DNA of 64,000 bases from NCBI GenBank assembly GCA_963766325.1, contig CAVXZF010000007.1:93706-157705 (forward strand), read 5' to 3'. The notes beneath the pieces are model-generated. The model had not been told where the DNA came from, searched no databases, and saw only the letters and a list, made by a program, of their open reading frames with translations. The position numbers and the translations under genes were made by a program. The DNA comes from an uncultured Actinomycetota bacterium (GTDB lineage: Bacteria; Actinomycetota; Actinomycetes; Mycobacteriales; CADCTP01). How positions within the stretch are numbered: the stretch's first letter is position 1; the number at the start of each line of letters is the position of its first letter. Of this stretch, positions 3,574-64,000 are shown in pieces.

Positions 3574-6195
3574 GTGACATCGACCGACCTGGCCGCCGAC
3601 CCGACCGGAGTGACCCGGGAGGAGCTGGACCGGCTCGTCGGCGGGGCGCACCACGACCCGCACTCGCTGCTCGGCCTGCACCCGGTGCGGGCCGCCCGGG
3701 CGGTGCCGGAGCGGGCGCCGGTCGCCTCGCCCGGGTCCGGGCAGCAGGCGATCGACACCGCCACCGACCCCACCGCCGCCCAGCCCGCCACCAACGGGGT
3801 CGCGGGTGCGGGCGCCGCCGCGGGTGCGGGCGCCGACACCGAGTCCCCGACCGAGGCCCCGACCGCCCCAGCCGCCCCAGCCGCCCCGACGGACCCGGCC
3901 GCCCAGACCTCCCCAGCCGCCCAGACCTCCCCAGCCGCCCCGACCTCCCCAGCCGCCCCGACGGATCCGGCTGCCCGGACCGCCCCAGCCGCTCCGGCCG
4001 GCGCGGGCGATCCGTCGACCGGCTCGCTGGAAGCGGGCGCCGACCCGGACCCCGGCACCGAGCCCGAGGCTGAGGTCGGCACCCTCGTGCTGCGCACCCT
4101 GCGCCCGGACGCCGGCCGGGTGGTCGCCGTCGTCGGCGACCGGCGGCACGAGCTGGACCGGGTGCACCCCGGCGGCGTGTTCGCCGGCCTGCTGCCCGGT
4201 CCGCCCGCCGACTACCGGCTCGAGGTGACCTACCCGGGCACCGGCGGCGGTCCGGACGAGACGATCACGGTCGACGACGCGTACCGGTGGCTGCCGACGC
4301 TGGGCGAGATCGACCTGCACCTGATCGGCGAGGGCCGGCACGAGCGGCTCTGGGAGGCGCTGGGCGCGCATTTCCGGACGTACGAGACCCCGCACGGGCC
4401 GGTCAGCGGCACCTCCTTCGCGGTGTGGGCGCCGAGTGCGCGGGGCGTCCGGGTCACCGGCGACTTCGACTACTGGCAGCGGCGCGCGTACCCGATGCGC
4501 TCGCTCGGCTCCAGCGGCATCTGGGAGATCTTCGTCCCGGGCGTGGTGCCCGGCGCGAAGTACAAGTTCTCCATCCTCGGCCGGGACGGCCGCTGGCGGG
4601 ACAAGGCCGACCCGCTGGCGTTCCAGACCGAGCGGACCCCGGCGACGGCGTCGGTGGTGCACAGCTCGACCCACCTGTGGTCCGACGACGAGTGGATGGC
4701 CAAGCGCGCGTCCACCCGCTGGCACGCCGCGCCGATGAGCACGTACGAGGTGCACCTCGGCTCCTGGCGCAAGGGCCTCGGCTACCGCGACGCGGCCGAC
4801 CAGCTGGCCGACTACCTGGTCGAGACCGGCTTCACCCACGTCGAGCTGCTGCCGCTGGCCGAGCACCCGTACGACGGGTCCTGGGGTTACCAGGTCACCT
4901 CGTTCTTCGCCCCGACCGCCCGCTTCGGCACCCCGGACGACTTCCGCTACTTCGTCGACCGGATGCACCAGGCCGGCATCGGCGTGATCATGGACTGGGT
5001 GCCCGGGCACTTCCCCAAGGACGAGTGGGCGCTGGCCCGCTTCGACGGCGGCCCGCTGTACGAGCACCCCGACCCGCGCCGCGGCGAGCAGCCGGACTGG
5101 GGCACGCTCGTCTTCGACTTCGGCCGCCGCGAGGTCCGCAACTTCCTGGTCGCGAACGCGCTCTACTGGCTCGAGGAGTTCCACATCGACGGGCTGCGGG
5201 TGGACGCGGTCGCCTCGATGCTCTACCTGGACTACTCCCGGCCGGCCGGGGAGTGGCTGCCCAACCAGTACGGCGGCCGGGAAAACCTGGAGGCCATCGC
5301 CTTCCTGCAGGAGATGAACGCGACCGTCTACCGACGGGTGCCGGGCGCGATCACGATCGCCGAGGAGTCGACCGCCTGGCCGGGCGTCACCCGGCCCACC
5401 CACCTCGGCGGGCTCGGCTTCGGCTTCAAGTGGAACATGGGGTGGATGCACGACACCCTGGACTACGCGTCCAAGGCGCCGATCTACCGGCAGTGGCACC
5501 ACCACCAGATGACCTTCTCGATGATGTACGCGTTCAGCGAGAACTACATGCTCCCGCTGTCGCACGACGAGGTCGTACACGGCAAGAAGTCGCTGCTCGG
5601 CCGGATGCCCGGCGACCACTGGCAGCAGGCGGCCACCCTGCGGGCGCTGTACGCGTACATGTGGGCCCATCCGGGCAAGCAGCTGCTGTTCATGGGCGGC
5701 GAGTTCGGCCAGGGCGCGGAGTGGGCCGACGGCCGGTCGCTGGACTGGTGGCTGCTGGACGACCCGCTGCACGGCGGGCTGCAGCGGCTCGTCGGCGACC
5801 TCAACCAGGCCTACCGGTCCGCCCCGGCGCTGTGGACGCAGGACACCTCGCCGGCCGGCTTCTCCTGGATCGACGCCAACGACGCCAGCAACAACACGTT
5901 CTCCTTCCTGCGCTGGGGCGACGAGGGCTCGGTGCTGGCCTGCGTGGTCAACTTCGCCAGCGTGCCGCACGAGGGCTACCGGCTCGGGCTGCCCCGCGCC
6001 GGCCGCTGGGTCGAGACGGTCAACACCGACGCCACCGTCTACGGCGGCTCCGGGGTGGGCAACATGGGCGAGGTCACCGCCGACCCCCAGCCCTGGCACG
6101 GCCAGCCCGCGTCGGTGCGGCTGCGGGTGCCGCCGCTGGGCGCCCTGTGGCTTCGCTACACCGGTGCGGCCATGCCCGACGGCACGGAGGACTGA
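3574..6195 (+). CDS. glgB: 1,4-alpha-glucan branching enzyme with a ~131-aa Pro/Ala/Thr-rich insertion in the N-terminal domain
   Basis: GH13 motifs [36 protein letters not shown] and [18 protein letters not shown] lies 4-5 nt before GTG 3574. Confidence 0.9.
3865..3990 (+). repeat. In-frame 9/18-bp repeats (gccccagcc; gcccagacctccccagcc) inside glgB
   Basis: Read directly. The repeats encode [37 protein letters not shown]. Confidence 0.85.
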
Positions 6196-7650: not shown

Positions 7651-7673
7651 GAGCCGGCTCCACCAGCCGGCTC
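7651..7673. terminator. Hairpin between the convergent metallopeptidase and thioredoxin-domain genes
   Basis: Perfect 9-bp stem GAGCCGGCT / AGCCGGCTC with loop CCACC. The right arm overlaps the thioredoxin-gene stop codon. Confidence 0.5.
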
Positions 7674-8652
7674 AGTAGAGCGCGCGGGAGAGGTCGCGGC
7701 GGGCCACGGTGACCCGCGGGTCGTCGGTCCCGACCACGCCGAAGAGCTCGACCAGCCGGGTCCGGGCCTGCTCCCGCTCGGCTCCCGCGGTGCGGCGCAC
7801 CGTGCCGAGCAGCCGGCGGAAGGCGCCGTCGACGTCGCCCTCGGCCAGCTCGACGTCGGCCGCGAGCAGCTGGGCGTCCAGGTCGTCGGGGGCGGCGTCG
7901 GCGCGGGCGACCGCGTCGGCCGGCGCGGCGGTGACCCGGCGGAGCAGCTCGACCTCGCGCAGCGCGGCGGCGGCCCGCGGGTGGCCCGGGTCGGCGGCGA
8001 GAATCTGCTGGTAGAGCCGGGCCGCGGTGTCGAAGTCGCCGGCCGCGGTGGCGTCCTCCGCCTCGAGCACCTGCGGGTCGTCTGGCTCCGCGGGCAGCTC
8101 GGCGTCCTCCCCGGGCGGGCCGGCCGGGGCCGCGCCGCTGGTCGCCTCGACCACCGCCTGGACGAACTGGCGGACCTGCGCCTCGGGCAGCGCGCCGGCG
8201 AACTCGCCGAGAACCTGGCCCTGGAAGACCGCCTTGACCGCCGGGATGCTCTGCACCCGCAGCGCCTGGGCCAGCGCCTGGTTGGAGTCCACATCGACCT
8301 TGGCCAGCACCCAGGCGCCGCCGCCCTCGGCGGCCAGCCGCTCCAGCACCGGGGACAGCTGCTTGCACGGCCCGCACCACTCGGCCCACAGGTCGAGGAT
8401 CACCGGGGTGCGGAACGAGCGGTCCAGCACCTCGGCCTGGAAGGTCGTCTCGGTGACGTCGAGCACGGTCACCGGCGCGGCCGGGGCGCCGCCGCCGTCG
8501 GGCGCCTGGGCCTGCGCGGCGGCCTGCGCCTCGGCCCGGTCCCGGGCCTCGGCCCGCGCCTTCAGCGCGGACAGGTCGACCGCGCCGGCGAGCGCGGCGG
8601 ACAGAGCGGGGCTGGGCGCGGGAGCACCCCGCGACGGACGACCAGGCTGCAT
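7672..8652 (-). CDS. Thioredoxin-domain protein with TPR-like C-terminal half (YbbN-like co-chaperone)
   Basis: WAEWCGPCKQL active-site motif followed by a helical repeat region. Same map position as Rv1324 in M. tuberculosis. Confidence 0.8.
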   Translation of the reverse strand: MQPGRPSRGAPAPSPALSAALAGAVDLSALKARAEARDRAEAQAAAQAQAPDGGGAPAAPVTVLDVTETTFQAEVLDRSFRTPVILDLWAEWCGPCKQLSPVLERLAAEGGGAWVLAKVDVDSNQALAQALRVQSIPAVKAVFQGQVLGEFAGALPEAQVRQFVQAVVEATSGAAPAGPPGEDAELPAEPDDPQVLEAEDATAAGDFDTAARLYQQILAADPGHPRAAAALREVELLRRVTAAPADAVARADAAPDDLDAQLLAADVELAEGDVDGAFRRLLGTVRRTAGAEREQARTRLVELFGVVGTDDPRVTVARRDLSRALY

Positions 8653-8710
8653 GTGCCCAGCCTAACCACGCCACCACCCCCGCCGCCGACCCCGCCCCGC
8701 CCCGCCCTCC

Positions 8711-8800
8711 TCCGCCTCCGCCTCCGCCTCCGCCGACTGCGGAGTTCCGCCGCCGACTGAGCAGCTGTAGCTCCTCAGTCGGTGCCGAACTTCTCAGTCG
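8711..8800. repeat. (TCCGCC)4 microsatellite followed by a small two-orientation member of the GACTGA/TCAGTC repeat family (2+2 units, 19-20 bp spacing)
   Basis: GACTG cores at 8735 and 8755. TCAGTC cores at 8775 and 8794. The inner arms CCGACTGAG / CTCAGTCGG are complementary. Confidence 0.85.
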
Positions 8801-8831
8801 CGGGCGGCGGGGGCCGCGGCAGGGGGCGGGG

Positions 8832-10508
8832 TCAGAAGCGGGCGGGCTCGGTGTACGACCCCCACTCGTCGCGCAGGGCGCCGCAGATCTCGCCCAGGGT
8901 GGCCTCGGCGCGGGCAGCGGCGAGCATCGGCGGGACCATGTTGGCGTCGGACCGTGCCGCCTCGACCATCGCGGCCAGCGCGGACCGGACCGCGGCGTCG
9001 TCCCGGGCGGCCCGCCGGGCGGCCAGCACCCGGACCTGCTCGCGCTCCACCTCGCCGCTGATCCGCAGGATCTCCAGGTCCTCGCCCTCGCCGCCCGGGT
9101 ACGCGTTGACCCCGACGACCTTCTTGTCGCCCTTCTCCACGGCTTGCTGGTAGCGGAAGGCGGCCTCGGCGATCTCGCCCATGAACCAGCCGTCCTCGAT
9201 GCCGCGCAGGATGCCGGAGGTCATCGAGCCGTCGGTGCCCATGTCCCGGATCCGGGCGAAGATCTCCTCGGCCTGCCGCTCCAGCTCGTCGGTGAGCGCC
9301 TCGACGTACCAGGAGCCGCCGAGCGGGTCGGCGACGTTCATCACGCCGGTCTCCTCGGCGATGACCTGCTGGGTGCGCAGCGCGATCTGGGCGGCCCGCG
9401 CGCTGGGCAGCGCGAGCACCTCGTCGAGCGCGTTGGTGTGCAGCGAGTTGGTGCCGCCGAGCACGGCGGCCAGCGCCTCGACCGCGGTCCGGACGATGTT
9501 GTTGTCCGGCTGCTGCGCGGTCAGCGAGACGCCGGCGGTCTGGGTGTGGAAGCGCAGCCACTGCGCCCGCTCGGTCTTGGCGCCGTAGACGTCGCGCAGC
9601 CAGCGGGCCCAGATCCGCCGGGCGGCACGGAACTTCGCGATCTCCTCGAAGAAGTCGACGTGCGCGTCGAAGAAGAACGACAGCCCGGGCGCGAACTGCT
9701 CGACGTCCAGGCCTCGGGACAGGCCCAGCTCGACGTACCCGAACCCGTCGGCGAGGGTGAACGCGAGCTCCTGCGCGGCGGTCGAGCCAGCCTCCCGGAT
9801 GTGGTAGCCGGAGACCGACAGCGGCTTGTACGCCGGGATCTCGGCCGCGCAGAACTCCATCAGATCGCCGATGAGCCGCAGGTGCGGCTCGGGACCGAAG
9901 AGCCACTCCTTCTGCGCGATGTACTCCTTGAAGATGTCGGTCTGCAGCGTGCCGTCCAGCCCGCGCAGGCCGGTGCCCTGCCGCTCGGCGGCCACCAGAT
10001 ACATGCAGAAAACCGGCACCGCCGGCCCGCTGATCGTCATCGAGGTGGTGACGTCGCCGAGCGGGATGTCGCGGAAGAGCAGGTCCATGTCCGCGGCCGA
10101 GTCGATCGCGACCCCGCAGTGGCCGACCTCGCCCAGGCTGCGCGGGTCGTCGGAGTCGCGGCCCATCAGCGTCGGCATGTCGAAGGCGACCGACAGCCCG
10201 CCGCCGCCCTCGGCCAGGATCATCCGGTAGCGCTCGTTGGTCTGCTCGGCGTTGCCGAAGCCGGCGAACTGCCGGATCGTCCACGGCCGGCCCCGGTAGC
10301 CGGTCGGGTAGAGCCCGCGGGTGAACGGGAACTCCCCCGGCCAGCCGATCCGCTCGAAGCCGGGACCGGCGTCGCCCGGTCCGGTCGGGCCGTAGACCGG
10401 GGCCACCTCGACCCCGGACAGGGTGGTGAAGTCGGCGTCGCGCTTGCGGGCCGCGTCGTAGCGGGCCTGCCAGCGGGCACGCCCGGCGGCGATCTCGTCG
10501 GGTGTCAC
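8832..10508 (-). CDS. icmA: Acyl-CoA mutase large (substrate-binding) subunit, isobutyryl-CoA mutase IcmA-like; no B12-binding domain
   Basis: Mutase TIM-barrel sequence. The specificity positions read [11 protein letters not shown] and [10 protein letters not shown], i.e. Phe and Gln as in IcmA where methylmalonyl-CoA mutase has Tyr and Arg. Confidence 0.7.
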
Positions 10509-10515
10509 ACCGGAA

Positions 10516-10533
10516 TACTAGGACGTCCTAGTA
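10516..10533. promoter_or_regulatory. Perfect 18-bp palindrome TACTAGGACGTCCTAGTA in the divergent icmA / LLM-oxidoreductase promoter region (candidate operator)
   Basis: Perfect dyad, AT-richer than its surroundings. It lies 8 bp from the icmA start and 82 bp from the LLM start. Confidence 0.4.
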
Positions 10534-11901: not shown

Positions 11902-12518
11902 CCGCCCGCCGGATCGCGGTGGTCACCGCCGGCACCGGCCGGCCGTCGGCGACCCGGCTGCTGGCCGACCGGCTGGCCGCGGCCACCGGCCAGGCGCTGG
12001 CCGAGCGCGGCCTGGCCGCCGAGGTCGAGGTGGTCGAGCTGCGCGAGCACGCCCGGGGGCTGGCCGACCACCTGGTCACCGGTTTCCCCGGCGGCGCGCT
12101 GCGGGCGGCCGTGCAGACCGTCACCGGCGCGGACGCGCTGATCGCGGTCACCCCGGTGTACGCGGCGTCGTACAGCGGGCTGTTCAAGACCTTCTTCGAC
12201 CTGCTCGACGATGACGCGCTGGCCGGCCTGCCGGTGCTGCTCGCCGCCACCGGCGGCACCGCGCGGCACTCCCTGGTGCTCGAGCACGCGATGCGCCCGC
12301 TCTTCAGCCACCTGCGCGCCCTCCCGGTGCCGACCGCGGTCTTCGCCGCGCCCGAGGACTGGGCCGGCGGCGGCGGCGACCGCACCGACCCCGGGCTGGA
12401 CCGGCGGATCGCCCGGGCCGCCGGCCAGCTGGCCGACCTGCTCGCCGGCCGCCGCCCGGAGCGCCCCGCCGACCCCTTCGCCGACCCCGTCCCCTTCGCC
12501 CAGCTCCTCACCGGCTGA
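11898..12518 (+). CDS. NAD(P)H-dependent FMN reductase (partner of the LLM oxidoreductase)
   Basis: RIAVVTAGTGRPSATRLLA and VTPVYAASYSGLFKTFFDLL are typical of this family. ATG 11898 lies in an ATGA overlap. This is only the 3' end of the 1124-aa track ORF 9144-12518. Confidence 0.7.
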   Translation: MTARRIAVVTAGTGRPSATRLLADRLAAATGQALAERGLAAEVEVVELREHARGLADHLVTGFPGGALRAAVQTVTGADALIAVTPVYAASYSGLFKTFFDLLDDDALAGLPVLLAATGGTARHSLVLEHAMRPLFSHLRALPVPTAVFAAPEDWAGGGGDRTDPGLDRRIARAAGQLADLLAGRRPERPADPFADPVPFAQLLTG

Positions 12519-12829
12519 CGGACCACCACCGCGACTGACACGTTCCCACCGCGACTGACACGTTCCCACCGCGACTGACGGCGCTGCCGCCGTCAGCCGC
12601 GGGCGGGCGCCGTCAGCCGCGGGCGGGCGCCGTCAATCGCGGGCGGGCGCCGTCAATCGCGGGCGGGCGCCGTCAATCGCGGGCGGGCGCCGTCAATCGC
12701 GGACGGAGAGCGTCAGCCGCGAGTGGGGGGCGTCAGCCGCGAGTGGGAGGCGTCAGCCGCGGACGCAGAGCGTCAGCCGCGGGTGGGGGCGTCAGCCGCG
12801 AGTGGGGGGCGTCAGGCGGTGGAGGGGGT
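12514..12829. repeat. 20-bp-period tandem array: 4 units GCGRCTGAC.. then 12 units CGTCAGCCGCG+9 nt in the opposite orientation
   Basis: Read directly. The period is exactly 20 bp except for one 19-bp unit. The array fills the whole spacer between the convergent genes. Confidence 0.95.
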
Positions 12830-13354
12830 GACGGTCTCGGAGGGGGGTTTCTGAGCGAAGTCGCCGGCCTCGGACCGGACCGAACGCAGCGCGGTGAAGA
12901 CCGCCTCCCGGCTGTCCGCCTCCAGCCCGGACAGCCCGAAGTCGATCGCCATCAGGTCGGCGGTCGCCGCCTCGGCCACCACCCGGCCCTGCTCGGTGAT
13001 CGAGGCGAGCACGCCCCGCCGGTCCGCCGGGTTGGACCGCCGCTCGACCAGCCCGGCCGCGGCCAGTCGGGTGATCGCGTTGGTCACGCTGGTCGGGTGG
13101 ACCATGAGCCGACTGCCGATCACCTTCAGCGGCAGCACGCCGGCGGTGCTGAAGTGCAGCAGCACCAGCGCCTCGTACCGGGCGAAGGTGAGTCCGTGCC
13201 GCCGCAGCACCTCGTCGTACCGTGCGAGGAGGATCTGCTGGACCCGCATGACCGATGTGGCCACCCGCATGGCGGAGGCCGGCCCCCAGGTCCGCTCCCA
13301 GATCTCCCCCGCGCGTTCGATCGGGTCGAACGGCAGATCCAGCGGCTTGGGCAC
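12812..13354 (-). CDS. MarR-family transcriptional regulator
   Basis: Winged-helix pattern LTFARYEALVLL...MVHPTSVTNAITRLAAAGLVERRSNPADRR. GTG start. Confidence 0.8.
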   Translation of the reverse strand: MPKPLDLPFDPIERAGEIWERTWGPASAMRVATSVMRVQQILLARYDEVLRRHGLTFARYEALVLLHFSTAGVLPLKVIGSRLMVHPTSVTNAITRLAAAGLVERRSNPADRRGVLASITEQGRVVAEAATADLMAIDFGLSGLEADSREAVFTALRSVRSEAGDFAQKPPSETVTPSTA

Positions 13355-23871: not shown

Positions 23872-24852
23872 ATGGGGATCATGTCTGACCGCACCGACCT
23901 GAGCTACATGGCCGACATGAGCATGAGCCACAACTTCGACGTGGCGCTGCGCGGCTACGACCGGCGGCAGGTCGACGACTACCTTTCCCAGCTGGAGAGC
24001 GAGCTCGCCACCCTGCGGCACGAGCGGGAGTCGGCCGGCGACCGGGTCGGGATGCTCGAGCAGCGGCTGGAGGAGCTGCAGATCGAGCTGCAGACCGCCC
24101 AGCGCAAGGTCGCCGAGTTCGAGCCGTCGTACGCGGGCCTCGGCGCCCGGGTGGAGAACATCCTCCGCCTCGCCGAGGAGGAGGCCATGAGCCTGCGCAC
24201 CGAGGCCGGTGCGCACGGCGACCGGGTCCGCGCCTCGGCCGAGGAGGACGCCAAGCGGGTCCGGGCCGAGGCCGAGCGGGAGGCGCGGGACATCGTCGGC
24301 GCCGCCGACCGGGAGGCCGGCCAGCGCCGGGCCGCGGCGATGAACGAGGCCGAGGCGCTGCGCTCCGAGGCCGGCAGGGACGCGGCCGCGGTCCGGGCCG
24401 AGGCGGCCAGCGAGCTGGAGGAGGCCCGGGCCAAGGCGGCCCAGGCGGCCAAGGACTTCGAGACCACCCTGCACCGCCGCCGGGACCAGGCCGAGCAGGA
24501 GCTGTCGGCCCGGCTGACCGAGGTGGAGCGCCGGCTCACCGAGACCAACGAGACGGCCGAGCAGATCAAGCGGGAGGCCGAGGCGCACCGGGCGGAGACC
24601 GAGCGGCGGTCCGCGCAGATCCTGGACACCGCCCGCCGGGAGGCCGAGGCGGTGGTCACCGACGCGACCGCGAAGGCGAGCCGGCAGAAGTCCGAGGTGG
24701 AGCGGGAGCTGGCCACGCTGGTCCGCCGCCGCGACAGCGTGCAGGCCCAGCTGCAGAACGTCCGCGAGATGCTCGCCACCATGACCGGCGGCTCGGTCGG
24801 CGGCGAGCAGGAGCCGGACGCGGCCGAGCCCGCTGCCCCGGCGCGCGACTGA
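23872..24852 (+). CDS. Coiled-coil protein with DivIVA-type N-terminal motif (FilP-like), paralogue of 21208-22212
   Basis: FDVALRGYDRRQVDDYLSQLESEL followed by Ala/Glu/Arg coiled-coil repeats. ATG 23881 is an alternative start. Confidence 0.6.
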   Translation: MGIMSDRTDLSYMADMSMSHNFDVALRGYDRRQVDDYLSQLESELATLRHERESAGDRVGMLEQRLEELQIELQTAQRKVAEFEPSYAGLGARVENILRLAEEEAMSLRTEAGAHGDRVRASAEEDAKRVRAEAEREARDIVGAADREAGQRRAAAMNEAEALRSEAGRDAAAVRAEAASELEEARAKAAQAAKDFETTLHRRRDQAEQELSARLTEVERRLTETNETAEQIKREAEAHRAETERRSAQILDTARREAEAVVTDATAKASRQKSEVERELATLVRRRDSVQAQLQNVREMLATMTGGSVGGEQEPDAAEPAAPARD

Positions 24853-25040
24853 CGGATCGCCGCCGCGGCTGACGGATCGCCGCCGCGACTGACGGACCCA
24901 GCGCCGTCAGTCGCGATCGCGCGGCGTCAGTCGCGATCGCGCGGCGTCAGTCGCGATCGCGCGGCGTCAGTCGCGATCGCGGGAGGTCAGTCACCGAGCC
25001 GCGGCGTCAGTCACGGAGCCGCGGCGTCAGTCGGGGGCGG
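24845..25040. repeat. 20-bp-period tandem array: 3 units GCGRCTGACGGATCGCCGCC then 7 units CGTCAGTCGCGATCGCGCGG in the opposite orientation
   Basis: Read directly. The central perfect inverted repeat is 24884-24895 / 24904-24915. Confidence 0.95.
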
Positions 25041-39311: not shown

Positions 39312-39406
39312 TGTGATCGGTCACCCGGCGGGGCCGTCAGGCGAGCACCCGGCGAGGGCGTCAGGCGAGCACCCGGCGGGGCCGTCAGGCGAGCACGGTG
39401 CCGCGG
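39312..39406. repeat. 24-bp tandem repeat (about 3.5 copies) CGTCAGGCGAGCACCCGGCGGGGC; the last copy is the 3' end and stop of the STAS gene
   Basis: Read directly. Copies start at 39335, 39359 and 39383. Confidence 0.9.
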
Positions 39407-39699
39407 CGCTCCACCACGATGACCCGGTCCAGCCGGGTCAGCGCGAGCAGCCGGGCGACCCGGGGCACGGCGTCGACCAGCACCAGCTCGCGACCCTGCA
39501 GCCGGGCTCGCCGGTGGGCCGCGACCAGGACGCCGAGACCGGTCGCGTCGAGCAGCTCGACCCCGGACAGGTCCACCACCAGCCGGCCGGATCCGCGGGT
39601 GAGCGCCTCGTGCAGCGCCTCGCGCGCCGCCGCCGCTCCCCGCGCGTCGAGCCGGCCGACCAGCTCGACCCCACCGTCCTGCGTCACGTTCGCTCGCAT
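39385..39699 (-). CDS. STAS-domain anti-sigma-factor antagonist
   Basis: LVVDLSGVELLDATGLGVLVAAHRRARLQGRELVLV pattern. GGGAGG lies 6 nt before ATG 39699. The track start 39738 is less likely. Confidence 0.7.
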   Translation of the reverse strand: MRANVTQDGGVELVGRLDARGAAAAREALHEALTRGSGRLVVDLSGVELLDATGLGVLVAAHRRARLQGRELVLVDAVPRVARLLALTRLDRVIVVERRGTVLA

Positions 39700-39851
39700 G
39701 GCGTCCCTCCCCCGCGCTAACGCCGGTACTGAGCACACATGATCGGGCGCTGATACGTCGCGTCCTCGCAGGGATCGTCATCGGATCGTCACCTGGGTGA
39801 CCGTCCGTGTTCGGCAGGCCCGTCGGCCGCGGGCAGTGCCAGACTGGACAC

Positions 39852-58057: not shown

Positions 58058-58197
58058 GAATGGGTCCTCTCGTCGGTGGCCGCCGGGTCGCCTGCGCCGT
58101 TGATGAACGGGGCCGGGCGTGAACCGGAGCCGAGGTCGTGCCCAGTGTGCCAGAGCGGCGCACCGCTGCGTTCAACGGACGGCACGGTCAGGTATTC

Positions 58198-58477
58198 CGG
58201 ACCGCCGCCATCATGATCACGTCGTGCCGCCGGCCGTCCCAGAGCAGCCCCTCGCGCTTGACGCCCTCGACGACGAAGCCTCGATCGCCCAGTCGTACCG
58301 GCCGGGGGCGTCGCCCCGGCTCCGGCACCAGATGTCGGTGTCGGTCTCGGAGAAGACCCGGTGGGTGCCGGTGAGCCGGCGCAGCTCCGGGTCCTGCACC
58401 GAGCGCCAGAGGTCCGCCGAGTCGCGCTCGTCGAGGGGCCGCAGCCTCACCCGCGGCCCCCGCAACGTAGCCCGCAT
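58198..58477 (-). pseudogene. GNAT (RimJ/RimL-like) N-acetyltransferase remnant: N-terminal ~65 codons joined out of frame to the last ~32 codons, catalytic core deleted
   Basis: The frame from ATG 58477 reads MRATLRGPRVRLRPLDERDSADLW..DPELRRLTG..RYDWAIE. A different frame ending at TGA (complement of 58198-58200) reads FVVEGVKREGLLWDGRRHDVIMMAAVRNT. The total span is 280 nt, which is not a multiple of 3. Confidence 0.5.
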
Positions 58478-60900
58478 CAGTCCTGACCGGGGGTGGACTT
58501 CGCGATCTGCATGAGGAACTCGACGTTGGTCCGGCTCTGCTTGAGCCGGTCCAGCAGCAGGTCGATCGCCTGCTCCGGGTCGAGCGCGTTGAGCACCCGG
58601 CGGAGCTTGTGCACGATCACCAGCTCCTCCGGCGCCAGCAGGATCTCCTCCTTGCGGGTGCCGGAGGCGATCACGTCGACGGCCGGGAAGGTCCGCTTGT
58701 TGGCGATCTTGCGGGACAGGATCAGCTCGGCGTTGCCGGTGCCCTTGAACTCCTCGAAGATCACCGTGTCCATCGTCGACCCGGTCTCGATCAGCGCGGT
58801 GGCCAGGATCGTCAGCGAGCCGCCGTGCTCGATGTTGCGGGCCGCGCCGAGGAAGCGCTTCGGCGGGTAGAGCGCGGTCGAGTCGACACCGCCGGACAGG
58901 ATCCGACCGGACGCCGGCGCGGCCAGGTTGTACGCGCGCCCCAGCCGGGTGATGTTGTCCAGCAGCACGACCACGTCGTGGCCGAGCTCGACCAGCCGCT
59001 TGGCCCGCTCGATCGACAGCTCGGCGACCGTGGTGTGGTCCGTCGGCGGCCGGTCGAACGTGCTCGCGATCACCTCGCCCTTGACCGCGCGCTGCATGTC
59101 GGTGACCTCCTCCGGCCGCTCGTCCACGAGGACGACCATGAGGTGGCACTCCGGGTTGTTGGTGGTGACGGCGTTGGCGATGGTCTGCAGGATCATCGTC
59201 TTGCCGGCCTTCGGCGGGGACACGATGAGCGCCCGCTGGCCCTTGCCGATCGGCATCACCAGGTCGATCACCCGCGAGGTGAGGATGTGCGGCTCGGTCT
59301 CCAGGCGGAGCCGGTCCTGCGGGTAGAGCGGGGTCAGCTTCATGAACTCGGGCCGGTTGCGAGCCTGCTCCGGGTCCACACCGTTGACCGTGTCCAGCCG
59401 GACCAGCGCGTTGTACTTGTCCCGCCGCTCACCCTCCCGCGGCTGCCGCACCGCGCCGGTGATCGCGTCGCCGCGGCGCAGGCTGTGCCGGCGGACCTGG
59501 GCGAGCGAGACGTACACGTCGTTGGGGCCGGTCAGGTAGCCGGAGGTCCGGACGAACGCGTAGTTGTCCAGGATGTCGAGGATGCCGGCCACCGGCAGCA
59601 GCACGTCGTCCTCGGCGATGACCGGCTCGGCCGGCTCGCCGCCGAAGCGGTCGGTGCGGTTGCGCCGGTTGCGGTCGCGGAAGCGGCCCCGGCGGCGGCC
59701 GCCGCCCCGGCCGTCGAAGTCGTCGTCGTCGTCCCGCTGGGCACCACCCTGGACGCCGTCCCGCTGGGCACCGTCCCGCTGGCCCTGCTGGCGGTCGCCG
59801 TCACGCTCGCGGTCGCCCTGCGCGACGCGCTGGTTGTCCCTGCCGCCGTCCCGCTCGCGGTCACCCTGCGCAGCGCGCTGGTTGTCCCGGCCACCGTCCC
59901 GCTGCCGGTCACCACCCTGCCGGTCGTCGCGCTGCCGCTCGCCGCCCTGCCGCTCGCCGTCGCGCTGCCGGTCACCACCCTGCCGGTCGTCGCGCTGCCG
60001 CTCGCCGCCCTGCCGCTCGCCGTCCCGCTGCCGGTCACCAACCTGCCGCTCACCAACCTGCCGGTCACCAACCTGCCGCTCGCCCGCCTGCCGGTCGCCA
60101 CCCTGCCGGTCGCCGTCGCGCTGGCCCTCGCGCTGCCGGTCGCCGCGCTCGCGGCGCTGCTCGCGCTGGTCGTCGCCGCGGTCACCCCGGTCGGCACGGT
60201 CCGACCGATCCGTACGGTCCGTACGGGTGCCGCGCTCCAGGCGGGCGCTCGCGTCCTGCCCGTCCACCGGCCGCTCGGTGGTCGCGGTCACCTCGGCCGC
60301 ACCCTCCGGCGCCGAGACCGTGTCGGGGCTGCCGGCTGGCCGGCTGGCCGCCCGGCGTTGCCGCCCCGGCCGCCCGGAGCCGGTCGATGTGTCAATGCTC
60401 ACATCCGGCCCGGTCTCCACCGCGGCGTCCGGCTGACCGGTCAGCACCGGGCGCGCCTCCGCCGGCACCTCGCTCACCGGGGCCGGCGCAACCGCCGCCT
60501 CGGCAACCGGCGACGCGACCGGCGACGCGACCGGCGACGCGGGCTCGACCGCCGGAGCCGACACCGACGGCGCAACCGACGCCTCGATGCCCGGCGGACC
60601 GCCCAGCGGCAGCTGCCCCTGCCCGTCGCCGCCCGGCGCGCCGTTGCCGGTCTGCCGCGCCTGGATGGCGCTGACCAGGTCGCCCTTGCGCATGCGGCCG
60701 ACGCCGCTGATGCCCAGCGAGGTGGCCATGGACTGCAGCTCGGGCAGCAACATGCCGGCCAGTCCGGCGGCGCGCCGGCGGGGCCGGGCGTCGGCCGCCG
60801 GCGCGGCGGGGGTCTCGACCGGGCCGGCAGCGGCTGGGCCTGCGGCGGGCTCGGCGTCCTGGCCGGCGGGGCCGGTCAAGGTGTCCGTGGTGTCGCTCAC
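58477..60900 (-). CDS. rho: Transcription termination factor Rho with ~350-aa hydrophilic insertion in the N-terminal RNA-binding region
   Basis: The C-terminal 370 aa are canonical Rho (CSD-like DNYAFVRTSGY, Walker A PPKAGKT, and the Q/R-loop regions). Total length is 807 aa. Confidence 0.95.
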   Translation of the reverse strand: MSDTTDTLTGPAGQDAEPAAGPAAAGPVETPAAPAADARPRRRAAGLAGMLLPELQSMATSLGISGVGRMRKGDLVSAIQARQTGNGAPGGDGQGQLPLGGPPGIEASVAPSVSAPAVEPASPVASPVASPVAEAAVAPAPVSEVPAEARPVLTGQPDAAVETGPDVSIDTSTGSGRPGRQRRAASRPAGSPDTVSAPEGAAEVTATTERPVDGQDASARLERGTRTDRTDRSDRADRGDRGDDQREQRRERGDRQREGQRDGDRQGGDRQAGERQVGDRQVGERQVGDRQRDGERQGGERQRDDRQGGDRQRDGERQGGERQRDDRQGGDRQRDGGRDNQRAAQGDRERDGGRDNQRVAQGDRERDGDRQQGQRDGAQRDGVQGGAQRDDDDDFDGRGGGRRRGRFRDRNRRNRTDRFGGEPAEPVIAEDDVLLPVAGILDILDNYAFVRTSGYLTGPNDVYVSLAQVRRHSLRRGDAITGAVRQPREGERRDKYNALVRLDTVNGVDPEQARNRPEFMKLTPLYPQDRLRLETEPHILTSRVIDLVMPIGKGQRALIVSPPKAGKTMILQTIANAVTTNNPECHLMVVLVDERPEEVTDMQRAVKGEVIASTFDRPPTDHTTVAELSIERAKRLVELGHDVVVLLDNITRLGRAYNLAAPASGRILSGGVDSTALYPPKRFLGAARNIEHGGSLTILATALIETGSTMDTVIFEEFKGTGNAELILSRKIANKRTFPAVDVIASGTRKEEILLAPEELVIVHKLRRVLNALDPEQAIDLLLDRLKQSRTNVEFLMQIAKSTPGQD
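59901..60120 (-). repeat. In-frame repeats inside rho: two 63-bp copies (125/126 identical, 59901-60026) followed by six 15-bp units
   Basis: Read directly. The repeats encode RQRDGERQGGERQRDDRQGGD twice and (V/A)G(D/E)RQ pentads. Confidence 0.9.
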
Positions 60901-61208: not shown

Positions 61209-62144
61209 TCAGCCGGCCAGCGCGAGCTGCTCCGCCCCGCCCTGGTCGACCGCCAGCACCTCGCAGGTCCAGTTGCGCGGCGCGTACGAGCCCAGGTCGT
61301 CGGTGGGCCCGGCGAAGGCGAGCACCGAGGGTCCGGCGCCGGACACCACGGCCGGCACCCCGTCGGCCCGCAGCGCCGCCACCAGCCCGGCCGTACGCGC
61401 CTGGCCGGCCGCCCGGTACGGCTGGTGCAGCCGGTCCTCGGTCGCGGCCAGCAGCAGCCCGGGCTCGCGGGCGAGCGCGTGCACCAGCAGCGCTGCCCGG
61501 GCGCCGTTGGCGGCGGCGTCGGCGTGCGGCACCGTCTCGGGCAGCAGCTTGCGCGCCTTCGCCGTCGAGGAGGTGGTCGCCGGCACGAAGACGACCGGCC
61601 GCAGCGCCGGCGACACCGGCAGCCGGACCGCGGTCGCCCGGTCGTCCGGCGGGGTCCACGCCAGGGTCAGCCCGCCGAGCAGGCAGGCGGCCACGTTGTC
61701 CGGGTGGCCCTCCAGCTCGGTGGCCAGGGCCAGCAGCGCGGCGTCGTCGAGCGTCTCCTCGCCGCCGAGCACCAGCGCGCGGGCGGCCACCAGGCCGGCC
61801 ACGATGGCCGCCGCGGAGGAGCCGAGGCCGCGGCTGTGCGGGATGCGGTTGGCGCAGACCACCTCGAGCCCGCGGGGCTGCCCGCCGAGCGCGTCGAAGC
61901 CGGCCTGCAGCGCGCGCACCACCAGGTGCCGGCGGGTGCGCGGGACGGTGTCGGCGCCCTCGCCGGCCACGTCGACGTACAGGCCCTCGTCGGAGACGCG
62001 GACGACCACGTCGTCGTACAGCGCCAGGGCTAGACCGAGCGCGTCGAAGCCGGGCCCGAGGTTGGCGCTGGTGGCCGGCACCCGGACGCGCACCGGCGCG
62101 GCCCGGAACGCGGCCCTCGACCCCCGTGACGCCGCTCTCCCCAC
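61209..62144 (-). CDS. thrB: Homoserine kinase
   Basis: GHMP-kinase motifs PATSANLGPGFD and NRIPHSRGLGSSAAA. GTG 62093 is an alternative start. Confidence 0.85.
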   Translation of the reverse strand: MGRAASRGSRAAFRAAPVRVRVPATSANLGPGFDALGLALALYDDVVVRVSDEGLYVDVAGEGADTVPRTRRHLVVRALQAGFDALGGQPRGLEVVCANRIPHSRGLGSSAAAIVAGLVAARALVLGGEETLDDAALLALATELEGHPDNVAACLLGGLTLAWTPPDDRATAVRLPVSPALRPVVFVPATTSSTAKARKLLPETVPHADAAANGARAALLVHALAREPGLLLAATEDRLHQPYRAAGQARTAGLVAALRADGVPAVVSGAGPSVLAFAGPTDDLGSYAPRNWTCEVLAVDQGGAEQLALAG

Positions 62145-62197: not shown

Positions 62198-63247
62198 TCA
62201 GGCGAGACCGAGCCGGGCGGCGGCGGCCGCCGCGTCGGCCGGGATGGTGACCGGGGCCGGCGCGCCCGAGATCGCCCAGTCCGGGTCCTTGAGCCCGTTG
62301 CCGGTGACCGTGCAGACGACGGTCTGGCCCGGCTCCAGACCTGACTTGAGCAGGCCGGCCACCGAGGCCGCGGACGCCGGCTCGACGAAGACGCCCTCGC
62401 TGCGGGCCAGCAGCCGGTACGCCGCCAGGATCTCCCGATCGGTGACCGCGCTGATCGCCCCGCCGGACTCGTCCCGGGCGGCCAGCGCGGAGGCCCAGGA
62501 CGCCGGCCGGCCGATCCGGATCGCGGTGGCGATCGTGACCGGCCGGTCCACCGGCTGCCCGGACACGATCGGCGCCGCCCCGGCGGCCTGGAAGCCGAGC
62601 ATCCGCGGGCGGCCCTGCCCGTACTCGGTGTAGCCCTTCCAGTAGGCCGTGATGTTGCCGGCATTGCCGACCGGCAGGCAGTGCACATCCGGGGCGCGGC
62701 CGAGCAGGTCGCAGATCTCGAACGCGGCCGTCTTCTGCCCCTCGATGCGGTCCGGGTTGACCGAGTTGACCAGCGTGACCGGGTAGTGCTCGGACAGGTC
62801 CCGGGCGACGGCCAGGCAGTCGTCGAAGCCGCCGTCCACCTGCAGCAGCCGGGCGCCGTGGACCAGCGCCTGGGCCAGCTTGCCGAGCGCGATCTTGCCC
62901 TGCGGGACCAGGACCGCGCAGGTCAGGCCGGCCCGGACCGCGTACGCGGCCGCGGACGCCGAGGTGTTGCCGGTGCTGGCGCAGATGACCGCCTTGGCGC
63001 CCCGGGCCGCCGCCTGGGTGATCGCCACCGTCATCCCGCGGTCCTTGAAGGATCCGGTCGGGTTGGCACCCTCGACCTTGAGCCACACCTCGCAGCCGGT
63101 CCGCCGGGACAGCTCCACCGCGCGCAGCAGCGGGGTGCCGCCCTCCAGCAGCGTGACCACCGGCGTGTCCGGGGCGACCGGCAGCCGATCCCGGTACGCC
63201 TCCACCACGCCCGGCCACCCGGCCGCTCGTACCCCCGCCATCGTCAC
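62198..63247 (-). CDS. thrC: Threonine synthase
   Basis: PLP-lysine motif [15 protein letters not shown]. Confidence 0.9.
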
Positions 63248-63276
63248 CCGACCAGCCTAAGCCGTCCCCACCACCG

Positions 63277-63581
63277 CCACGGCCGAGCAACGTCACGCAC
63301 GCCGACTGACGGCTCCCGGCCTCCGCTGACGGCACCAGCGCCACGGCCGAGCAACGTCACGCACCCGCGACTGACGGCTCCCGCTCGCCAGTGACGGCAC
63401 CAGCGACGTCAGCCGCGGACGCCCGACGTCAGTCGCGGACGCCCCGACGTCAGCCGCGGACGCCCGACGTCAGCCGCGGACGCCCGCCGTCAGTCGCGGA
63501 CGCCCGACGTCAGTCGCGGACGCCCGACGTCAGTCGGGGGCGCCGGCAGTCAGGGGGGAGCCACGGGGGCGGGTCAGGCGG
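63277..63581. repeat. Composite repeat: 2 copies of a ~64-bp unit (each carrying two CTGACGG/GTGACGG cores) followed by ~9 units of CGTCAGYCGCGGACGCCCGA (20-21 bp)
   Basis: Read directly. Lies between the hom stop (63574) and the thrC start (63247). Confidence 0.95.
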
Positions 63582-64000
63582 GGTCGCCCTCGACGCGCAT
63601 GACGCTGGCGACCTCACGGACGACGGGCAGCCGGCGCAGGTCCTCGACGGTGGCGGACAGCGCCGCGTCGGGGGCGAGGTGGGTGACCAGCACCAGCGTG
63701 GCGTCCGCGCCGCGCCCGGACTGCCGGACCGTGGAGATGCTCACGTCGTGCGCGGCGAAGGCCTGCGCGACCGCGGCCAGCACGCCCGGCCGGTCGGCCA
63801 CGTCGAGCGCGATGTGGTAGCGGGTCGGCGTCTCCCCCATCGGCCGGACCCTGAGGTCCGCGTACGCCGACTCGCCCGCGCCGCGCGCCCCGGTCAGCCG
63901 GTTGCGGGCGACCGCGACCAGGTCGCCGAGCACCGCCGACGCGGTCGGCGCGCCGCCGGCCCCGCGGCCGTAGAACATCAGCTCGCCGGCCGCGTCGCCG
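63574..64000 (-). CDS. hom: Homoserine dehydrogenase, C-terminal part including ACT domain (5' end beyond window)
   Basis: ...FYGRGAGGAPTASAVLGDL... followed by an ACT domain (YHIALDVADRPGVLAAVAQAFAAHDVSI). The frame stays open to the window edge. Confidence 0.85.
   Translation of the reverse strand, partial: GDAAGELMFYGRGAGGAPTASAVLGDLVAVARNRLTGARGAGESAYADLRVRPMGETPTRYHIALDVADRPGVLAAVAQAFAAHDVSISTVRQSGRGADATLVLVTHLAPDAALSATVEDLRRLPVVREVASVMRVEGDPA

Follow-up and report, generated by a model that had tools for sequence, protein, structure and literature searches.

We analysed a 64,000-nucleotide stretch of DNA (the window) from an uncultured Actinomycetota bacterium, positions 93,706 to 157,705 of contig CAVXZF010000007.1 in assembly GCA_963766325.1. 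Near one end of the window, hom (homoserine dehydrogenase) and thrC (threonine synthase) lie on the minus strand and are separated by 326 bp (63248-63573). A preliminary description, made from the letters alone, had read this gap as filled with repeats, and the Pfam identities of the genes and the arrays found by Tandem Repeats Finder bore that out. A single member of a dispersed palindromic repeat family that forms hairpins takes up the hom-thrC spacer. In the direction of hom transcription, the locus contains the following features (GC3, GC content at third codon positions).

63574..64000, minus strand: 3' part of hom (homoserine dehydrogenase with ACT domain; Pfam Homoserine_dh and ACT); stop codon TGA at 63576..63574; GC3 of 0.99
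63545..63573, minus strand: degenerate first unit or spacer; TGA at 63552..63550, in frame with the hom stop and 24 nt downstream of it
63404..63544, minus strand: seven tandem units of 20/21 nt, CGCG[A/G]CTGACGTCGGGCGTC in the sense of hom (Tandem Repeats Finder; repeat family)
63380..63423, no strand assigned: central hairpin CAGTGACGG-CACCAGCG-ACGTCAGCC; T-to-G spacing of 16 nt; covariance model R1
63269..63405, plus strand: 65-bp higher-order repeat in two copies with four opposite-sense cores (Tandem Repeats Finder); the 3' arm of the hairpin on the hom transcript
63254..63259, minus strand: TAGGCT, a -10-like hexamer 6 nt upstream of the thrC GTG (63247..63245); putative leaderless thrC promoter
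62198..63247, minus strand: thrC (threonine synthase; Pfam PALP, 8.4e-76; homologues annotated as threonine synthase)
61209..62144, minus strand: thrB (Pfam)

Tandem Repeats Finder reported two blocks. One (63404-63544) has a period of 20, 7.0 copies, 92% matches and the consensus CGACGTCAGTCGCGGACGCC. The other (63269-63405) has a period of 65, 2.1 copies and 89% matches, and it corresponds to the two copies of about 64 bp with plus-oriented cores that had been noticed before. Read with hom, the spacer runs from the stop codon through a degenerate unit, seven good units, the central hairpin and four opposite-sense cores to about 40 nt of unique sequence, and then to thrC. The good units carry minus-sense TGAs at 63532, 63512, 63492, 63472, 63452, 63431, and 63411, and the plus-sense TGAs of the spacer are at 63307, 63327, 63372, and 63392. 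TGA-bearing units in the sense of hom therefore number seven good and two degenerate. The earlier count of about nine minus-oriented units corresponds to seven good units, one degenerate unit, and the context of the hom stop. That context, GACCCCGCCTGACCCGCC, lies 24 nt from the next TGA and resembles a unit only weakly, so the statement that the last unit contains the hom stop is only loosely true in the window. It is literally true in a related contig (L147), whose hom gene stops at the TGA of unit 1.

The 65-bp region and the 20-bp units form nine inverted-repeat pairs (I1-I9) that are 70-79% complementary. The centre of the array lies at 63392-63411 with a spacing of 16, and the antisense block has been reorganised as 2 x 65 bp. 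As the period of 20 is not divisible by 3, successive unit TGAs run through all three reading frames, and any three units stop all three. Thus, an open reading frame (ORF) that enters from either side is closed within three units. The plus-half then minus-half order had been taken as intrinsic to the element because it is kept between two minus-strand genes. The architecture is indeed intrinsic, but the orientation of the genes is uninformative: read from the opposite strand, (A)n-(A')m becomes (A)m-(A')n, whatever the gene orientation. The order shows an inverted repeat and nothing more.

A dispersed repeat family

Three more members of the family are in the window (no strand is assigned to any of them).

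12513..12830 (array 12516-12811): 4 plus and 12 minus units between the convergent genes for FMN reductase (stop 12516-12518) and MarR (stop 12812-12814); both stops are in terminal units
24847..25032 (array 24850-25026): 3 plus and 7 minus units between a convergent DivIVA-like gene (stop 24850-24852) and an aldo/keto reductase gene (stop 25027-25029)
8733..8805: small diverged member of 2 + 2 units with the core GACTGAG / CTCAGTC, downstream of the methylmalonyl-CoA mutase gene (8832..10517, minus strand) and upstream of a thioredoxin-TPR gene (7672..8661, minus strand)

The arrays at 12516-12811 and 24850-25026 share with the hom-thrC array the core CGCG[A/G]CTGACG, the 20-nt period and the 16-nt centre spacing, which confirms the earlier suggestion that they belong to one family. 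Periodic TGAC/GTCA chains in the window reached 10, 10, and 16 members, and the maximum reached across 200 first-order Markov simulations was 5. We also built a covariance model of the central hairpin of the family (R1). It matched 8746-8789, within the small member, with 27.7 bits (E = 0.013), and this sequence was outside the training set; the centre of the hom-thrC array, which was in the training set, scored 47.4 bits. There are therefore four family members in 64 kb, all downstream of stop codons.

Two other places in the window deserve mention. The apparently diverged member at 8733-8805 makes this the second co-directional junction with an array-like element, and the same junction in a relative (L149) holds about 3.4 kb of extra genes (TIR_2, HATPase_c_4, and a PhD/PIN toxin-antitoxin pair). 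At 39322-39396, a 24-nt unit (read with the gene, GTGCTCGCCTGACGGCCCCGCCGG) occurs in three in-frame copies, which repeat the final codons and the TGA stop of the gene at 39385..39777 (minus strand). These copies are all in the sense orientation, have no inverted half and fill the spacer up to the start of the next gene. Their core, GCCTGACGG, resembles the family core, and they could represent either a proto-array or a 3'-end duplication that has nothing to do with the family.

When metagenomes were scanned with two phased cores, 55 contigs matched. Seven of these loci, on independent contigs (L086, L094, L104, L107, L109, L124, and L137; GC content, 0.74-0.77), had a block of sense units, the centre TGACGG-N8-CCGTCA, and a block of antisense units, in that order. 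The T-to-G spacing was 16 nt at all centres except that of L137, where it was 17 nt, and the loop consensus was about C[A/G]CCAGCG. In an alignment of 11 members (A1), the 13-bp central helix was 85% paired, and controls with slid partners were 26-51% paired.

The window thrC was closest to metagenomic sequences, of which those with names come from MAGs (metagenome-assembled genomes) annotated as "Mycobacteriales bacterium"; its identity to Geodermatophilaceae sequences was 78-80%. No array was present at the best 80 thrC loci in the genome collection (Streptomyces, Modestobacter, and similar genomes; 74-79% identity; about 1 Mb), which serve only as an outgroup. The repeat is probably a non-autonomous element, apparently specific to an uncultured high-GC lineage annotated as Mycobacteriales. 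A blastn search of the plasmid collection with the array at 24.9 kb gave no match. In Rfam, no family matched an array at the gathering threshold across the whole window (the sole family above threshold was a ribosomal protein leader, described below), and a search in E-value mode at the locus returned only chance matches to miRNAs and CRISPR-DR29 with E values of at least 2. A literature search by concept found no description of this repeat family, and searches with the repeat strings matched only primers.

Several more ordinary explanations were rejected. A CRISPR array does not fit, since the units abut without spacers and the CRISPR-DR29 matches were at chance level (E values of at least 4.9). 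A coding repeat was ruled out by the absence of a GC3 signal and by stops in all frames. An assembly artefact was ruled out because independent JGI, ENA, and Logan assemblies have the same architecture. The repeat family is therefore real and apparently undescribed, although its kind, interspersed extragenic palindromes, is already known. What is unusual is that each unit has its own stop codon and that the element is inserted flush between stops of convergent genes.

A different 20-nt repeat was seen in two contigs (L121, 749-829, and L118, 14427-14507). Five tandem units of CGCGGCTGACGATGCGCGGG each contain a TGA stop and an ATG start with CG between them. This is a tandem duplication of a stop-start gene junction and has no inverted half.

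Stop codons and the hom-thrC junction in relatives

ORFs heading into arrays were identified by their GC3. There were 18 GC3-supported ORF ends beside arrays with plus and minus units, and all 18 had TGA as the stop codon. The stop fell in the first chained unit at 11 of these ends, in unit 2 or 3 at three, and 24-78 nt upstream at four; the chaining rule favours an offset of 0 somewhat, and by eye about ten stops lie in unmistakable units (e.g., ...CGCGAC-TGA-CGG).

The MarR junction provided a before-and-after comparison. In L149, whose MarR is 86% identical, the MarR and FMN reductase genes overlap at CTAG (10528-10531), which reads TAG on both strands, and the same was found in L150-L152. 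In the window, an array of 293 bp lies exactly between these two genes; the FMN reductase gene terminates at GGC-TGA-CGG, and the MarR product gains 4 residues and stops at a degenerate unit. From this sequence comparison, the CTAG junction of L149 is an empty site for the array at 12.5 kb in the window. Since the empty site has no likeness to a unit, the array would have arrived from elsewhere in the family and would not have grown locally. An origin in situ from the local stop-codon sequence was ruled out for the same reason. The hom protein is affected in a similar way. It ends in ...MRVEGDPA* in the window, which is 1-2 residues longer than in array-free relatives (...VEGGD*/VEGGE*). The arrays thus alter C termini by a few residues (MarR by +4, and the tail of hom is changed). 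They also generate spurious ORF calls and are likely break points in metagenome assemblies.

The hom-thrC spacers of relatives ranged from about 17 to 1216 bp, and most were roughly 0-40 bp, so the spacer of the window is unusually long, as had been suspected. The closest relative (L081; thrC with 91% nucleotide identity) has a spacer of 35-41 bp and no array. Spacers of about 17-26 bp without an array were found in L141-144 and L146 (stop-to-GTG or called-gene estimates). Two contigs have arrays here. L147 has a 155-bp spacer with five sense CGAGTGACGGCGC units, the last of which forms the centre, and two antisense units. L083 has a 460-bp spacer with about 14 sense GGCGGGTGACGGCGC units and three antisense units. 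The window and L083 have the flanks of the array in common (TGACCCGCC.CCC and GTGGCGGTGGTGGG). The array is therefore an old, inherited feature of hom-thrC that some lines have lost, and homogenisation has led to different unit variants.

Other insertions were seen at this junction. The 91%-identical L140 has a spacer of 1216 bp with an ORF on the opposite strand; this ORF (4399-5541) encodes 380 aa, has no Pfam match and has a stop codon that abuts that of hom (TAGTCA). In L084, a GAGCCCCGCCGGGGCGGGGACCCCGGCG palindromic and tandem repeat (9672-9980) fills hom-thrC, giving a spacer of about 310 bp of unrelated palindromes. A repeat of about 60 bp with a GGCCCCGCGCGGGCC hairpin is in the thrC-thrB spacer of L146 (3716-3978). 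Intergenic spacers of this lineage seem to be generally prone to colonisation by GC-rich hairpin repeats.

The preliminary description had stated that an invariant repeat number among relatives, together with a continuous hom-thrC-thrB transcript, would leave a regulatory role without support. Copy number and presence both varied widely. This fits a dynamic, dispensable element, and by itself it is no proof of regulation. The main alternative is that the repeat is a purely selfish or neutral palindromic satellite that is prone to slippage, is tolerated only where it is harmless (immediately behind stop codons) and leaves the expression of hom and thrC unaffected. Presence varies among close relatives at both the hom-thrC and the MarR junctions, copy number ranges over 5 + 2, about 14 + 3, and 9 + 4 units, the 65-bp duplication is of a higher order, and unit variants are rapidly homogenised within arrays. 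Furthermore, predicted TRIT (Tuberculosis Rho-independent terminator) and I-shaped hairpins are seldom at mapped termination sites in Mycobacterium tuberculosis. However, a long stem-loop at the end of an mRNA would almost unavoidably affect 3' processing. Also, TGA and the palindrome are kept in each diverged variant (GACTGACGG, GAGTGACGG, GGGTGACGG, and GACTGAG), which suggests constraint, although survivorship of harmless insertions would look alike. We consider a purely neutral satellite rather unlikely, but this account overlaps the explanation that we favour below, and the two differ only on whether there is an effect on expression.

The unit cores hint at a difference between genomes. 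All four arrays of the window have C-TGA, whereas G-TGA was found at orthologous loci in L083, L147, and L148 (3 of 3). The last of these contigs is 87% identical, and at the aldo/keto reductase junction it has about seven sense units of GCGAGTGACGG, where the window has GCGACTGACGC. Core variants are also mixed within single arrays (L094, L148, and L083). Because of this mixing, we treat genome-specific core variants as a suggestive lead only and make no claim for them.

Such a pattern could reflect co-evolution with a DNA-binding factor. The symmetric TGACGG...CCGTCA half-sites, about two helical turns apart, might be phased sites for a dimeric or polymerising protein (a nucleoid organiser or a transcriptional roadblock), and the RNA hairpin would then be incidental. 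The core sequence is conserved beyond the needs of pairing, the units recur strictly every 20 bp, and the centre spacing hardly ever departs from 16 nt (L137 has 17 nt). However, no candidate protein was identified, the mixing of variants weakens the genome-specific pattern, and the core conservation at metagenomic loci is partly due to how these loci were selected. The stop-codon anchoring and the orientation rule for TGA would also have no obvious meaning. Therefore, we think that an array of protein-binding sites is very unlikely.

A possible role for the transcribed hairpin

The preliminary description had placed the array inside a hom-thrC operon. This is overstated for the clade. All 8 clade loci have TA[C/G]NCT, exactly 6 nt, and an invariant GTG before thrC, with no Shine-Dalgarno sequence. 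This arrangement is kept although the remaining spacer is unalignable, even when the genes are about 17-20 nt apart and also in L140, with its intervening opposite-strand gene. Leaderless promoters of actinobacteria have the -10 sequence TANNNT. Taken together, the conserved box and the GTG without a Shine-Dalgarno sequence indicate that thrC very probably has its own leaderless promoter. With such a promoter, the array would lie between a stop codon and a promoter and not inside an obligate polycistron, and the hom-thrC "operon" of this clade is probably two transcription units anyway.

The situation in Streptomyces is different. There, the stop codon of hom, TAA in most cases, overlaps a GGAG immediately ahead of the ATG of thrC, and this overlap indicates classic coupling as judged from the sequence. 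At most Streptomyces loci (among L001-L080), the TAA that ends hom is an otherwise rare stop codon within GAAGGAGAGTAA, which overlaps the thrC Shine-Dalgarno sequence, unlike the leaderless arrangement of the clade.

These observations bear on the role first proposed for the array, a regulatory terminator within a hom-thrC-thrB operon that uncouples thrC-thrB from hom. The adjacency of hom and thrC, the translational coupling of the Streptomyces pair through GGAG over the hom stop, and the capacity to form a long hairpin all favour it. However, thrC in the clade keeps its -10-like box 6 nt before GTG, without a Shine-Dalgarno sequence, even at spacers of about 17-20 nt, and in L140 an opposite-strand gene parts hom from thrC. 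Thus, the two genes would already be uncoupled without any array. In addition, there is no U-tract, and there is no leader peptide or riboswitch. An operon-splitting terminator is, in our judgement, highly unlikely. A threonine attenuator or riboswitch leader for thrC was rejected as well: Rfam has no match, stops in all frames preclude a leader ORF, and thrC is putatively leaderless.

The minus strand, which corresponds to the hom transcript, folded into one long interrupted stem with a minimum free energy of -225.7 kcal/mol (z = -2.68 against dinucleotide shuffles). The z value for the opposite strand of the hom-thrC array was -1.8. For the arrays at 24.9 kb and 12.5 kb, z was -3.07 and -5.46, respectively, with centroid structures dominated by the central hairpin. 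Beyond the last hairpin arm, the sequence reads GGCGGTGGTGGGGACGG. Therefore, the terminator-like structure proposed earlier stands as far as the long hairpin is concerned, but it is not a U-tract terminator. Stem-loops without U-tracts are frequent at the 3' ends of actinobacterial transcripts, and the predicted dependency on Rho is higher in this phylum than in any other (PMC13613805).

On balance, and with little better than even confidence, we favour the model that the array is a dispensable non-autonomous element like TRIT and the REPs (repetitive extragenic palindromes) and that its hairpin, once transcribed, works at the 3' end of the upstream transcript as a pause site or as a barrier to exonucleases. 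The building block would be a hairpin, ...CGCGACTGACGG-N8-CCGTCAGTCGCG..., each arm of which was amplified in steps of about 20 bp, presumably by replication slippage or unequal exchange. Every unit carries TGA in the sense of the adjacent gene. With stops in three frames, the element can sit flush with the 3' end of an ORF, or slightly replace it, on either side without giving a long read-through protein. At this locus, the array lies between the hom stop and the putative leaderless thrC promoter. On the hom transcript, sense and opposite-sense units would pair into a long GC-rich stem-loop without a U-tract. This stem-loop may pause or terminate RNA polymerase with the help of Rho, block 3'-to-5' exonucleases, or both. 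The upstream transcript would be delimited, and the thrC promoter would be incidentally shielded from read-through.

Several results weigh against this model. The array is missing from the closest relatives, whose spacers are about 17-40 bp, and hence it serves no essential purpose. The fold z values at hom-thrC (-2.7 for the minus strand and -1.8 for the other) are modest for a GC-rich background. No canonical intrinsic terminator (hairpin plus U-tract) was found on either strand of 62900-64000. Covariation in the central helix of the 11 hairpins was not significant (79 of 500 shuffles reached the observed score). The metagenome sample was picked by the core motif itself, which makes core conservation there partly circular. 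The array-flanking genes that were scanned with Pfam included no transposase or mobility function, although RAYT was not specifically searched. Finally, in M. tuberculosis, just 2-4% of the termination sites that have been mapped coincide with a predicted TRIT or I-shaped terminator (bioRxiv 10.1101/2022.06.01.494293), so hairpins without a U-tract may not terminate transcription alone. The assignment of the array to its family is much firmer than its proposed function.

A more speculative version of the 3'-end model would make the arrays cis elements of a sequence-specific 3'-end system in actinobacteria that are poor in U-tracts. The conserved CGCGACUGACGG duplex, in RNA or in DNA form, would be the target of a trans-acting factor that causes bidirectional termination or protects 3' ends. 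Gene ends would be colonised by the element, which supplies its own stops, and in each genome the variants of the core would evolve together with the factor (C-TGA here and G-TGA in relatives). We regard this version as improbable.

Canonical terminators are scarce in high-GC actinobacteria, and there is still debate over what defines the ends of their transcripts. A strand-symmetric, stop-flush element with a stop in each unit is a compact case of how a repeat can colonise gene ends without damage to proteins.

The gene for Rho is also in the window (58477..60900, minus strand; Pfam). It encodes 807 aa, and its N-terminal part contains in-frame coding repeats with periods of 15, 30, and 63 nt (59894-60176), which presumably correspond to the repetitive insertion domain typical of actinobacterial Rho. 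Downstream of rho is the L31-Actinobacteria ribosomal protein leader (RF03158, 52 bits; 58078-58133, minus strand).

Comparison with known systems

The TAACTGA heptamers of Beggiatoaceae and Cyanobacteria are intergenic 7-nt direct repeats just upstream of start codons, and they have been proposed to be sites for translational regulators (PMC4679880). Like the family described here, they are abundant, lineage-restricted intergenic tandem repeats that contain TGA, but they lack the palindromic architecture and the anchoring at gene 3' ends. Mycobacterial interspersed repetitive units (MIRUs) are closer in that they are actinobacterial tandem intergenic repeats between co-directional genes, with stops related to the flanking ORFs and with variable copy number. 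MIRUs have direct units only, of 40-100 bp, and contain small ORFs that couple translation. In contrast, the units here are 20 bp, there is an inverted half, and stops in all frames mean that no ORF crosses the array.

The REPs and bacterial interspersed mosaic elements (BIMEs) of Proteobacteria are dispersed extragenic imperfect palindromes as well. They too are found at gene 3' ends and between convergent genes, are transcribed as stem-loops and vary in presence. REPs can stabilise upstream mRNA and attenuate transcription. However, the REPs of a BIME alternate in orientation, whereas here there is one direct block and then one inverted block. Also, no GTAG-type head is evident here, and REPs do not systematically include the stop codon of a flanking gene.

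The TRIT motif is a conserved bidirectional hairpin located on stop codons, at around position -8, and it has been reported only in Mycobacterium (Gardner et al. 2011, PMC3152330). Both TRIT and the present family are sequence-conserved, multicopy palindromic hairpins of high-GC actinobacteria that are bidirectional, lie on the stop codon of the adjacent gene and have no canonical U-tract. They differ, in a comparison by description only, in that TRIT is a single hairpin, whereas here the arms are amplified to blocks of 2-14 tandem 20-bp units, each with a TGA. The host also differs, because the bacterium here is not a Mycobacterium as judged by its thrC relatives. By analogy, TRIT appears to be the closest known system in its logic, and the arrays bear on whether hairpins without U-tracts, such as TRIT, affect transcription or RNA stability.

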